IMG/VR virus record: IMGVR_UViG_3300028048_000081
Coordinates: 60,242 to 124,241 of that record
Direction: 5' to 3' (one strand)
DNA: 64,000 nt
Origin: a virus
Lineage: Duplodnaviria > Caudoviricetes
Shown: piece after piece, positions 1-47,995 of the stretch
Position numbering within the stretch: the first letter of the stretch is position 1
How the letters are laid out: the number at the start of each line of letters is the position of its first letter
The notes under the pieces: generated by a model
The model's input: the letters and a program-made list of their open reading frames with translations, nothing else
What the model was told of the DNA's origin: nothing
Database searches by the model: none
Made by a program: the position numbers and the translations under genes

Positions 1-210
1 GATGATGCAATATTCAGAAGTACTTACGGGAACTATTTTAAAGTAGGGGGAATGATACAGAAGGATGTAAAGATCATAAGTTTAAAGAGTATTCCTGAAA
101 ATAATGATATATTGCTTTCTACATCAGATGAAAGTTTTAAACACGGAAAAGTTGGAAAATATATAAAGGATATGTTCAGCGATAAATGTAGATATGAGGA
201 GGGTATTTAA
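1..210 (+). CDS. 3' end of a hypothetical protein (truncated by window start)
   Basis: Frame 1 is open from base 1 to TAA at 208-210, overlapping the next ATG (TAATG). Confidence 0.6.
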   Translation, partial: DDAIFRSTYGNYFKVGGMIQKDVKIISLKSIPENNDILLSTSDESFKHGKVGKYIKDMFSDKCRYEEGI

Positions 211-584
211 TGAAGAAATATATTAAATCATCCAGTGGTTATAATAAAGTAGAAATAATGAGTTCTGAGGATGGCTTGTATACACTTTATGAAGAAGAAG
301 GTGTGGGAAGAAATGATACTCGTTATACAGGCCTTATAGTAGAATCTTTTGGTACTGCATATGATAATGTAATAGAAATAAGACCTATAGCGAAAAATTC
401 TCCAGAATTCAATGGTGGAAAAGTAAAGTACGAATATTCCGGATGTTATATTTCGCATGGTATGAACGGGCATACAGACACATTAGAAGAAACAGAACAG
501 TATATTTCAGATCTTCAATCTGCTGTCAAGTTTGCTAAAAGAATAAACAATTACATTCGAGATGCTTGGACGAGGATATTTTAA
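210..584 (+). CDS. Hypothetical protein with basic leader MKKYIKSS (putative head-packaged protein)
   Basis: GGAGG RBS; leader motif shared with other ORFs in the window. Confidence 0.75.
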   Translation: MKKYIKSSSGYNKVEIMSSEDGLYTLYEEEGVGRNDTRYTGLIVESFGTAYDNVIEIRPIAKNSPEFNGGKVKYEYSGCYISHGMNGHTDTLEETEQYISDLQSAVKFAKRINNYIRDAWTRIF

Positions 585-607
585 TTAATAAGGAGTGTAT
601 GATAATT

Positions 608-907
608 ATGAAAAAGTATGTTAGATCTAGTAGTCAAGATGTACAGGGAATTGTAGACAAGTGCAATGAAAATGTCCCGGAACTGCTTTCTAAATTGATG
701 GATGCGTTATATGGATTACAATCATTACAGGAAGATATGGATCCGGTAAGTGATTATGAAGTGTCAATTCGACATAAGAATGGTCAAGAATATTATTCTG
801 GTCAGAATGAATTTGAAGATTTAGATGCTTGTAAACACAATATAGACGGAGCAGTTGATTCTATAAATGATGCAATTGAATATCTTTCGGACTGGAAGGG
901 CATGTAA
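608..907 (+). CDS. Acidic helical hypothetical protein with leader MKKYVRSS (putative head-packaged protein)
   Basis: Start re-assigned to ATG 608 (AAGGAG upstream; leader matches the previous gene). Confidence 0.75.
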   Translation: MKKYVRSSSQDVQGIVDKCNENVPELLSKLMDALYGLQSLQEDMDPVSDYEVSIRHKNGQEYYSGQNEFEDLDACKHNIDGAVDSINDAIEYLSDWKGM

Positions 908-936
908 ATATTAATATACATGTTCATATACATAGG

Positions 937-964
937 AGATGCTACTTATGTAGCATCTTTTTAT
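937..964 (+). terminator. Rho-independent terminator
   Basis: AGATGCTAC-ttat-GTAGCATCT stem-loop followed by a T tract. Confidence 0.8.
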
Positions 965-972
965 TGTGTTTT

Positions 973-984
973 GAACCTTTTATA
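973..984 (+). promoter_or_regulatory. Putative phage late promoter GAACCTTTTATA
   Basis: Motif recurs 7 times upstream of structural/lysis/leader-bearing genes; here it lies just after a terminator. Confidence 0.7.
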
Positions 985-1033
985 TCAATAGATAAAAATA
1001 TACTATTCTAAAACTGTTAGGAGGTACAACAAT

Positions 1034-45801: not shown

Positions 45802-46090
45802 TAAAGAAGAACAATTGGATAAGGAGCTTGAAAATATTCAAAAAGGATTGAGGGAAATATCTAAAGTAGAAAATTACCTGAAAGATCACAATATAGAATA
45901 TGAGAAAAATATGATTTTTAACGGTATTCAGATTGCAACCAAAGATTGGGATGTTGTTTTTCATAAGTATGCTTATGGATACAAAAATGGATTGATGGAA
46001 GCATGTGGATCTATCTGCAGATTGAATGAAGATGTAGAAGGATGGCTGAGTGCTAAGGATATCATAGAGAGGTTAGAAAATAATAATTAG
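45794..46090 (+). CDS. Hypothetical phage protein
   Basis: WDVVFH...YG...GLME.......DVEGWLSA common phage motif; start uncertain. Confidence 0.6.
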   Translation: MNNKEEQLDKELENIQKGLREISKVENYLKDHNIEYEKNMIFNGIQIATKDWDVVFHKYAYGYKNGLMEACGSICRLNEDVEGWLSAKDIIERLENNN

Positions 46091-46101
46091 AACCTTTTAT
46101 A
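46090..46101 (+). promoter_or_regulatory. Putative late promoter GAACCTTTTATA
   Basis: Exact motif 22 nt before a leader-bearing gene. Confidence 0.7.
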
Positions 46102-46122
46102 TATCCGAAAGGAGGCATCACT

Positions 46123-46485
46123 ATGAAAATTAAAAAATCCCGTATAGTTGCTGCCGATGATGATTTTGATTTTGGGGATCCCGCAGAAGATCGTCCGGAT
46201 CCTGATGATTTTGATCAAGATGATCTTGGGGATTCAATAGATGATATGCAAGATACTCTTGAGGACATGGAAGACAACATAGATGAAATAACTGAAGATG
46301 ATGAAAATATTGAAACAGATAACAATATTTCAAATCACTACATTGCAGAATGTGAAAAATGCCATGGAATATTTATTTCTGCAGTTATTGAATCTGATGA
46401 ACCTGTAGAAAGCATTCATGGAAAATGTCCATTATGCGATAAAGATTCTGAACAGTTCCTCAAGTGGGTAGTAAAGGATGCTTAG
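46123..46485 (+). CDS. Acidic protein with leader MKIKKSRIVAA and C-terminal Zn ribbon
   Basis: AAAGGAGG RBS; CEKC...CPLC. Confidence 0.8.
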   Translation: MKIKKSRIVAADDDFDFGDPAEDRPDPDDFDQDDLGDSIDDMQDTLEDMEDNIDEITEDDENIETDNNISNHYIAECEKCHGIFISAVIESDEPVESIHGKCPLCDKDSEQFLKWVVKDA

Positions 46486-46629
46486 ATGTACAAGATAAAA
46501 GTTTGCCCTTTGTGCCATCAATTATTCATATCCAATATTGATGGAAATCAGTATTTCTTTCAGAATAACTGCGGTCAAATGATAGAATATTGCGGAGGGG
46601 AACAGCCCATACAGGAAAGATATTTATAA
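46486..46629 (+). CDS. Small Cys-containing protein (47 aa; not in ORF track)
   Basis: MYKIKVCPLCHQLF...; fills the gap exactly; AAAGGA upstream. Confidence 0.5.
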   Translation: MYKIKVCPLCHQLFISNIDGNQYFFQNNCGQMIEYCGGEQPIQERYL

Positions 46630-46639
46630 GGAGATAAAA

Positions 46640-47533
46640 ATGAAGTTAGGGTTTGAAAAGGTAAAAGAACTTCTTCCAAAAATAAAACAAGAAATAAAAG
46701 ATAAAACAGTTAAGTTTTTAGAGAAGAACGGATTTCCTGAAGATGAAGCAGATGAGTGGTCTAGAGTAGATACAGACATAAAACATTCATCTGATGAATT
46801 TGGAGATTCAACAGCTATATACATTGAGGTTGGAGCAGAACTGTCATTAGATAGTATGTTTGATCTCAATGAAGAACTTAACCCAATTATTCAGAAGATC
46901 GATCCTGAAGCTTATTTTGAAGTTTACGAGCCAGGAATAACTGTTTGTTACATATGGTATAATGATTCCGAAATTGAAAATGTGGACTCATCCATCAATC
47001 TTGATGATTATGATGATGGATATGTAGAGATGCGAGATGGAGAACCTAATTTTGTATATGATAAACGTGAGGATGCGGAATCCGGTATCTACTACAGCAA
47101 ATTAGGAGATGCTGAATATGGATTAGGTAATCACGATTATAAACTTATGCGTTGGAAGAATAAGGAGCTTAAAGACATGAATTCAGCAACAAATACAGTA
47201 GGTATATCTGCATCTGCAGAAGGATCTGCATCAGATTTCTTTTCGGAGGATACATTACTTCAGTTTGCAGATACTGTAATATACGATGCAAAACAAGAGA
47301 TTCGAACAACTGTTGATTCTGAAATTGATATAGAATTACAAGATGTGTATATTGTAGATTACAATAGACTTGTTATTGATTTTACCGATAATATTCATGA
47401 CGATGAAGTACAATCTGTAGAAGCAAATATAGATATGGATAACATATCCGATGAGTCGGATCTTGAAAGACAATATAGTTGGCTTTCTGATGAAATCTGC
47501 AATATTTATTACAATGAAGTTCAGACACTTTAA
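46640..47533 (+). CDS. Acidic multi-module hypothetical protein
   Basis: AAGGAG RBS; internal VDSS and ISAS linkers. Confidence 0.7.
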   Translation: MKLGFEKVKELLPKIKQEIKDKTVKFLEKNGFPEDEADEWSRVDTDIKHSSDEFGDSTAIYIEVGAELSLDSMFDLNEELNPIIQKIDPEAYFEVYEPGITVCYIWYNDSEIENVDSSINLDDYDDGYVEMRDGEPNFVYDKREDAESGIYYSKLGDAEYGLGNHDYKLMRWKNKELKDMNSATNTVGISASAEGSASDFFSEDTLLQFADTVIYDAKQEIRTTVDSEIDIELQDVYIVDYNRLVIDFTDNIHDDEVQSVEANIDMDNISDESDLERQYSWLSDEICNIYYNEVQTL

Positions 47534-47542
47534 GGTGAAAAT

Positions 47543-47995
47543 ATGAAGATATTAAGTTATAAAGATGTAAGAGATCCTTACTGGAAAACACATCCAGATG
47601 CAGAAACCGATTCTGAACCTATCACAGATATAGAAGTAGGAGAAGGTGAGATACTTGTTGATATGAGATTTGATGTAGATGAAGACGGGTACTTAAATTT
47701 CGACAAGTATTTAGATGAAGATTTGAGAAAAATGAGAATTGAAGACCCGTACGAAGGTATAGAAACTGGAGATGGAAGATCTATTGATGTATGGGATGTA
47801 TATGAAGATATAATTTCAGTGATTGAAAAATATACTGAGGATAAATTAGGTGGGTCTGGTACATATAGAATTCAAGGATACGCAGATTTAATCTATAATG
47901 TATCGGTTTCAGATAATGATTATGATCATGAAGATGTAAAATTTAATCTTGAAGAAAGCAGTATGGAAGAAAATACAAAATTAGCAATCATCTAA
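47543..47995 (+). CDS. Acidic hypothetical protein
   Basis: AAGGTG RBS. Confidence 0.7.
   Translation: MKILSYKDVRDPYWKTHPDAETDSEPITDIEVGEGEILVDMRFDVDEDGYLNFDKYLDEDLRKMRIEDPYEGIETGDGRSIDVWDVYEDIISVIEKYTEDKLGGSGTYRIQGYADLIYNVSVSDNDYDHEDVKFNLEESSMEENTKLAII

Follow-up and report, generated by a model that had tools for sequence, protein, structure and literature searches.

In bacteriophage T4, the internal proteins IPI-III and Alt carry at their N-termini a short capsid-targeting sequence (CTS), which is cut by the prohead protease gp21 (Mullaney & Black 1996; reviews), and the tethered protease is active only inside the prohead. The head proteases of the giant phages, phiKZ gp175 and SPN3US gp245, recognize A-X-E, with V at P4 and S at P1', while a maturation-site substrate in human cytomegalovirus (HCMV) has the sequence V-V-N-A↓S-S (the arrow marks the scissile bond, which for the phage described here is predicted). 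Here we describe short, basic N-terminal leaders (tags) that are shared by unrelated acidic proteins of an uncultured phage, identified in a window of 64,000 nt (by which we mean the whole stretch of DNA that was analysed) forming the right half of a single-contig genome of 124,241 bp with ~33% G+C (IMG/VR record IMGVR_UViG_3300028048_000081). We consider it reasonably probable, from sequence comparisons, that the phage's own gp21-type (S77) prohead protease acts on these leaders, which probably also serve as handles for sorting into the capsid; the arrangement is probably a CTS-like system with a new cleavage specificity.

The resemblance to T4 lies in the presence of a short N-terminal leader on unrelated proteins, ending in a gp21-type protease site, in the recurrence of the same site type at the propeptide junction of the gp23-like capsid protein and in core or scaffold proteins, and in the genes themselves, which are small, variable and partly dispersed. 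On the other hand, P1 is Ala, Ser, Cys or Gly rather than Glu, the tag comprises 5-8 residues rather than 10-20, the carriers amount to ~27 strongly acidic open reading frames (ORFs) rather than to a handful of proteins, and protease and scaffold are fused, in place of a separate gp21 and gp22. A search of the literature, incomplete in its coverage, found neither the tag strings nor an S77 protease that cuts after Ala or Ser.

Short leaders on unrelated acidic proteins

The gene set was taken from the + strand, which by itself covers 89% of the genome, and comprises 160 ORFs, named here after their start positions. A preliminary description of the window had drawn attention to ten Lys/Arg-rich leaders ending in [IV]-x-[ASC]-[SAGN], and to three further ORFs with internal copies of this motif. 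All ten N-termini, as well as the three "internal" carriers, translate as it gave them, each preceded by a Shine-Dalgarno (SD) sequence; two ORFs have better-placed starts, namely 42267 (MKRVVSN) instead of 42261 and 608 instead of 599. The carriers of the window, except for one doubtful member and one protein without a leader that are treated further below, are the following:

210..584, + strand: tagged orphan of 124 aa, MKKYIKS↓S (tag codons 210-230), without Pfam or PHROG match
608..907, + strand: tagged orphan of 99 aa, class-1 tag MKKYVRS↓S, without Pfam or PHROG match
33963..34286, + strand: tagged acidic protein of 107 aa after the gp13-like neck gene; leader end K-I-T-A↓G, then an acidic body
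34359..35546, + strand: tagged, very acidic protein of 395 aa, net charge -44; leader end K-V-E-A↓G
39454..40296, + strand: tagged protein of 280 aa; 5-residue leader MKIVS↓S
40301..40516, + strand: tagged acidic protein of 71 aa; leader end R-I-N-A↓A
40531..42251, + strand: two very acidic multi-module proteins of 217 and 356 aa, overlapping at 41181-41184; internal K-I-E-S↓A, K-I-T-S↓A and D-I-M-A↓S
42267..42506, + strand: tagged orphan of 79 aa, MKRVVS↓N
42509..43078, + strand: acidic protein of 189 aa; leader MNHKVRC↓S
43308..43520, + strand: tagged orphan of 70 aa, MKRIAS↓S; score 7.1 with the structural-site matrix (see below)
46123..46485, + strand: tagged acidic zinc-ribbon protein of 120 aa; leader end R-I-V-A↓A, then DDD

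Two classes of leader can be distinguished. In class 1 the tag is tight and has the form M-K-[RK]-[YV]-I-[KR]-[SAC]↓[SA], exemplified in the window by ORFs 210, 608, 42267 and 43308, with a 5-residue form in ORF 39454. In class 2 the leader is basic and longer, and acidic sequence comes after its terminal [IV]-x-A-[AG] (ORFs 33963, 34359, 40301 and 46123). The two are not sharply separated, as class-1 tags grade into class-2 sites through forms such as I-H-A-A and I-R-C-A.

The enrichment at N-termini that had been suggested for the loose motif [IV]-x-[ASC]-[SAGN] is real but weak. Within the first 12 residues it occurs in 21 of the 160 ORFs, compared with a mean of 6.3 and a maximum of 14 in 500 shuffles, and with 10.4 predicted from its internal rate, i.e. 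about a 2-fold excess over the latter. The tight core tag, by contrast, begins 13 ORFs genome-wide when searched as a regular expression, against 0.3 expected (shuffle maximum 3), and the class-1 count including variant starts reaches ~19 in the genome, four of them in the window. The cohort had initially been put at about 13 members and treated as a feature of the window; its members are real and most of the others are backed by orthologs, but the total is ~27 ORFs and they are spread over the whole genome. In particular, an array upstream of and extending into the window, at genome 49.6-60.2 kb, contains ~15 tagged ORFs (counting 210 and 608), starts of this kind being even commoner there than in the window. 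Three complete or near-complete relatives have only 3-4 core tags apiece (0.4-0.6 expected), which makes the tagged set of the present genome unusually large.

Across all DNA collected we found 59 distinct class-1 tags, in which conservation drops off sharply past position 8. Identical tags are written in different codons: two genes beginning with MKKYIKSS are unlike at 5/8 third positions, and the Ser codons include TCT, TCA, AGT, TCC and AGC. This synonymous variation indicates selection on the peptide, not on the DNA. The tagged bodies, of 70 to 395 aa, are unrelated by BLAST, with the single exception of g50147 and g55631, which have a domain in common (E = 1e-14), and searches of the carriers against Pfam and PHROG returned no family other than the LRV (leucine-rich variant)/HEAT repeats of g50586. 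The characterization of the carriers as mutually unrelated orphans therefore stands, and so does that of their acidity, the median net charge per residue being -0.145 compared with -0.036 for other ORFs (p = 1e-5).

Capsid junction, prohead protease and the predicted cut

The head gene region includes the following features:

29824..31209, + strand: prohead protease of the S77 gp21 type, 461 aa, fused to a coiled-coil scaffold; protease residues ~20-165
31243..32697, + strand: gp23-like major capsid protein (MCP), Pfam Gp23 at 6.8e-20
31243-31440, + strand: MCP propeptide, basic, residues 1-66, with one or two Glu; predicted mature N-terminus A67

The preliminary description had pointed to densely repeated copies of the motif both in the MCP propeptide and in the tail of the protease, and these copies are real. 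The propeptide has four copies, V18-K-A↓S, I24-T-S↓A, V34-T-A↓S and I64-T-A↓A67. In the viral collection, 50 loci were found whose MCPs share 57-74% identity with the present one, and all 50 propeptides contain 3-5 copies of [IV]-[TMN]-[AS]-[GAS] and a common junction, [IV]-[TM]-[AG]↓A-T-N-T-x-N-I. An exhaustive search of protein representatives yielded distant MCPs (24-31% identity) with the classical T4-type junction at the same place, e.g. I-L-E↓A-T-N-S-S-N-I, and in many cases [LIM]-x-E↓[AST]-T-Q. In the alignment, I-T-A↓ATNT of the present phage stands opposite I-L-E↓ATNS and [LI]-x-E↓ATQ of these E-type proteins (those with Glu at P1), which places the scissile bond after the third residue of the motif and means that at this homologous junction P3 was retained, while P1 switched from Glu to Ala or Gly. 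Instead of the I/L-x-E of Glu-type cleavage, the tags, the MCP junction and the sites in the protease all carry A, S, C or G at P1, and the predicted specificity of the enzyme is I or V at P3, a free P2 (T, M, K or R), A, S, C or G at P1, and S, A, G or an acidic residue at P1'. Megablast and tblastn searches against cultured phages found no close relative; the MCP search among them matched E-type phages only, the nearest being Streptococcus GXN1, Bacillus HSE3 and Listeria LIS04 (~26% identity), and no cultured member with a small P1.

ORF 29824 matches Pfam Peptidase_S77 (PF03420) with 28.1 bits (cut-off 27) and PHROG 207 at 3e-22. Sequence and profile searches of the PDB gave no match and only the fold search succeeded: for an AlphaFold2 model of the first 185 residues (pLDDT 74), the best Foldseek match is T4 gp21 (5JBL, TM 0.59-0.65, 24% identity), followed by the herpesvirus assemblins (TM 0.4-0.5, 6-12% identity). 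H71 and S126 are invariant in 30 relatives and are inferred to be catalytic. The other 290 residues make up a tail that is coiled-coil and scaffold-like, with an acidic C-terminus ending in D-[IL]-V-T-[LIM]. Right behind the protease domain lies a release-like (R-like) site, [IV]-A-A↓S-[ST]-D (V166-A-A↓S169 in the present phage), and ~45-50 residues before the C-terminus a maturation-like (M-like) site, [IV]-T-[AS]↓S-T-[ST]-V (I414-N-S↓S417); both are nearly invariant in 43 distinct relatives. Columns that separate the small-P1 from the Glu-type enzymes include protease residues 40, 68, 127 and 160 (window 29824-30378). E-type enzymes have an invariant Arg (T-R-N-x-R) where the small-P1 clade has L, M or V (Leu40 in G000), and Glu where it has F, W or Y (Phe68 in G000), three residues ahead of His71. 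As a hypothesis, the differences at positions 40 and 68 may determine the S1 specificity, and these residues are candidates only, since enzyme type and phylogeny are confounded.

Several lines of evidence connect this predicted specificity with the tags. In 38 MCP propeptides the pattern derived from the leaders occurs 88 times, as compared to 12.9 +/- 3.5 in composition-matched shuffles, and it is 11x denser there than in mature MCP. The propeptides include I-K-S-S, I-K-A-S and I-R-A-S, and the form with a basic P2 is found in 14 copies versus 4.6 +/- 2.1. Comparison of orthologs locates the motif at the boundary between leader and body. Among the 34 orthologs of ORF 33963 the leader varies in length and sequence, while its end is always [IV]-x-A, with G, S, D, E or N as the next residue, and a retained site behind variable leaders is likewise seen for ORFs 34359, 39454 and 40301. 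Syntenic proteins of relatives with a 34359-like N-terminus keep [IV]-x-[AS]-G ahead of a conserved L..LL.G..F start (BLAST homology to 34359 being confirmed for L011 and L001 only), and the eight orthologs of 39454 start with MKI[YVT][SAC][SNT], one of them with two tandem sites. Some orthologs have a class-1 tag and then a second site of the structural type, as do those of 40301, with [IV]-[TE]-A-A↓[ED] at the body boundary. In P0152, a homolog of ORF 210 (47% identity), the tag is kept (MKRVIKA↓S) and the sequence behind it has diverged; for ORF 42267 no ortholog was found.

Moreover, one and the same body may stand behind an N-terminal tag in one phage and behind an internal site in another. 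The body of 46123 is the C-terminal half of a larger protein in three relatives and is preceded there by internal sites of the form I-T-A-A↓D, I-M-A-A↓D or V-H-A-A↓D, and residues 24-99 of 42509 match residues 187-263 of a 462-aa protein of G003, located there behind an internal I-V-S-A↓D. Conversely, residues 222-288 of 41181, which follow D-I-M-A↓S, constitute a separate tagged protein of 74 aa (MKRYIRC↓A) in the relative G001. This last case bears out one of the internal motif copies to which the preliminary description had extended its proposal; for the remaining internal sites of 40531 and 41181 the comparison with relatives gives no support.

Finally, the type of P1 co-varies between the junction in the capsid protein, the release site of the protease and the tags in four independent lineages (L086, L087, L089 and L091). 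L086, with a small P1, has the junction I-R-S↓A, the release site I-A-S↓A and the tags MRIIS↓S and R-V-N-S↓G. In L087, a small-P1 lineage from pig gut, the junction is I-P-S↓A and the release site L-A-A↓S, and L-N-S-S is present in two copies each in the MCP propeptide and in the protein encoded behind the neck gene. L089 and L091, the closest E-type lineages, have Glu at the junction and at the release site, and possess tags of their own, which are 7-8 residues long and have Glu as the last residue; in L089:295-2871 a 7-residue tag, M-L-[KR]-I-x-[IY]-E, of the same length as the class-1 tag, precedes three unrelated ORFs. When IMG/VR DNA was scanned for MKRVIKAS, 10 matches were obtained, of which six are genuine ORF starts, all on four contigs with the MCP of the clade; the other four, without SD and with 13-36 codons, are due to chance. 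Taken together, the homology of the MCP junction, the two invariant sites of the protease, the ortholog boundaries and the co-variation of P1 indicate that the earlier proposal was very probably right in regarding the leaders as ending in the motif of the phage's own protease.

The proposed mechanism is as follows. The tagged proteins would join the scaffold core within the prohead, where the scaffold-tethered protease would fire and strip leaders of 5-10 residues, and the same motif would serve the self-release of the protease, the dismantling of the scaffold and the trimming of the MCP. The acidic bodies would remain alongside the DNA inside the head, and a part of them at least would enter the cell at infection. 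The class-1 tag would probably be a sorting handle as well as a cut site, like the CTS of T4.

The system also invites comparison with giant phages and herpesviruses. It resembles the former in its S77-type protease, which in giant phages processes a large number of head and ejection proteins by cutting at propeptides at their N-termini, and in the several copies of the motif within propeptides; in contrast, the giant-phage enzymes cut after Glu, their propeptides mostly span 80-130 residues, and a uniform short tag has not been reported. With the herpesvirus assemblin (UL26/UL80) the protease shares the fold; its order of protease, putative R-like site, scaffold, putative M-like site and tail recalls the protease, R-site, scaffold, M-site and tail of the assemblin, and the predicted combination of a hydrophobic P3, a small P1 and Ser at P1' resembles the HCMV site V-V-N-A↓S-S. 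The wider cleavage consensus of assemblins is (V/L/I)-x-A↓S. However, the present protease lies outside the herpesvirus sequence family, with gp21 first in Foldseek, and herpesviruses are not known to have a tagged cargo cohort. The predicted herpes-like specificity may be either ancestral or convergent.

Alternative explanations and implications

A number of observations weigh against protease-cleaved sorting leaders. The cluster at 39.4-47.5 kb, which comprises half of the carriers of the window, lies among recombination genes, encoding SNF2 helicase, RecU-like, UvrD and SbcC-like proteins, and not among head genes. A propeptide of 5-7 residues falls short of every proven CTS (10-20 residues), the motif on its own carries little information and is frequent within proteins, and its basic-P2 form is rare in MCP propeptides, with 8/14 copies from one lineage. 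The confinement of the tags to the clade could stem from descent alone. A matrix built from the homology-anchored structural sites only (MCP junction, R-like and M-like) is not enriched at N-termini (ratio 1.2-1.4, n.s.), and it misses the class-1 tags. The latter have features of their own, namely a basic P2, Ser at P1 and a constant distance from Met, and since the basic P2 is mostly absent from structural sites, and MK starts are common (35/160 ORFs), the class-1 tag might be a clade-specific N-terminal signal for some other reader (uncleaved docking to scaffold or portal, a chaperone, or a stability or translation element), its likeness to the motif being incidental. We find this unlikely, as the P3 and P1 of the tag match the protease motif and I-K-S-S and its variants do occur in MCP propeptides, class 1 grades into class 2, tagged bodies swap with bodies behind internal sites of the structural type, and the E-type lineages have tags of similar length that end in Glu. 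A search of the tag arrays for another partner enzyme found only a weakly Mom/DUF7487-like protein of 548 aa and nothing tied to the tags. The fixed register and basic P2 rather suggest that the class-1 tag is likely not just a place for cutting but also the determinant of sorting.

The other explanations dispense with a shared peptide signal or with the phage protease. The common 5' ends could be recombination handles at the DNA level for the shuffling of cassettes, as proposed for the internal-protein loci of T-even phages, or an element of translation initiation, in which case the peptide would have no function. The tagged genes do form arrays of fast-changing orphans, and the number of tags differs greatly between relatives, but this interpretation is very improbable in view of the different codons of identical tags, the unlike upstream regions and the additional occurrence of the motif internally, at module boundaries. 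Likewise, the domain common to g50147 and g55631 is what one would expect if the carriers were diverged paralogs and the tag a leftover of their ancestral N-terminus; we give this idea hardly any credence, because the other bodies are unrelated and differ several-fold in length, conservation halts at position 8, and tags are found on HEAT/LRV, leucine-rich repeat (LRR) and methyltransferase-domain proteins. Finally, a host protease might trim the leaders in the manner of Prp, which processes L27 and the capsid and scaffold proteins of the staphylococcal phage 80alpha. Prp cuts before Ser, following a small residue, the present phage has a low G+C content, and its nearest cultured relatives infect Firmicutes. 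Nevertheless, such a role of a host enzyme is very improbable, given that the phage has a protease of its own, whose self-processing sites carry the motif, and that the type of motif tracks the phage lineage; the tags presumably bear no likeness to the L27 leader.

If the leaders are indeed sorted and cleaved by the phage's own protease, the capsid-targeting principle of T4 would reach a large clade of uncultured phages with a different protease code, and virion cargo, comprising dozens of orphan acidic proteins per genome, could be read from the genome alone. In relatives this cargo would also include methyltransferase-domain and repeat proteins. As it would consist of the first phage proteins to meet the host, it would be a good place to look for counter-defence factors, and it is tempting to speculate about effector roles of the tagged proteins in anti-defence or DNA mimicry. 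The tag of 7 residues would provide a compact means of bringing proteins into the heads of phages. The switch from Glu to Ala or Ser in an S77 protease, together with the herpes-like layout, bears on the common origin of capsid maturation in phages and herpesviruses. CdnG of the cyclic-oligonucleotide-based antiphage signalling system (CBASS) is a host sensor of gp21-type cleavage at L-x-E loops, and it may be speculated that the switch at P1 helps to evade sensors of this kind.

It is tantalizing to combine these elements into a bolder scenario, which we offer tentatively and regard, as a whole, as somewhat doubtful. The 7-residue class-1 tag would be both required and enough for the loading of any protein into the capsids of a widespread, uncultured phage clade of the gut/rumen type, and each phage would inject a private, fast-evolving set of 5 to 25+ acidic proteins (DNA mimics, methyltransferases, repeat proteins), while the Ala↓Ser specificity of the herpesvirus assemblin and its protease-scaffold layout would have been retained, or arrived at anew, by the S77 protease of the clade, linking two virus realms in substrate recognition.

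Other proteins and minor observations

Two further acidic proteins of the window stand at the margin of the cohort:

29450..29812, + strand: small acidic protein just 5' of the protease, in a prohead-core-like position; without a leader in the present genome
46640..47533, + strand: acidic protein of 297 aa, doubtful member; untagged N-terminus, no homologs, internal motif copies within chance

Orthologs of the 29450 protein in several relatives begin with MKKVIHA↓AEEEY or MKKRYIRS↓AELE, so that the tag comes and goes on an otherwise conserved body. Near its C-terminus this protein has T-I-E-S↓G, behind which lies a tail of ~25 residues that is basic and amphipathic, and it may be a core protein that is cut close to the C-terminus. 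The doubtful ORF 46640 had been included among the carriers of internal copies in the preliminary description, a membership that its chance-level motif content does not sustain. For ORF 46123, we also considered a split gene; this was rejected, as tblastn finds no N-terminal half upstream or in the window.

Among the tagged proteins with recognizable domains, the one with LRV/HEAT repeats is encoded at L071:5586-6563 (genome 50586-51563), and tags are found in relatives on two methyltransferase-domain proteins and a BspA-type LRR protein (L066:3523-4911:-, L052:10634-11509:- and L062:16681-17673). The 548-aa protein of the upstream tag array (L071:8945-10591, genome 53945-55591) is a zinc-finger protein with DUF7487 and a weak match to the Mom family. 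A metagenome fragment of 6.7 kb contains seven consecutive tagged ORFs, mostly with MKRVIKAS (L073:312-5229), and a tail-fibre-like gene of 562 aa adjoins this row. Elsewhere in the window, 14685-16718 encodes a 677-aa protein with an M23-type peptidase end and PHROG matches to tape-measure or minor-head proteins, and 19249-21306 a 685-aa protein with a LysM motif; both products are likely to be virion proteins that act on the cell wall.

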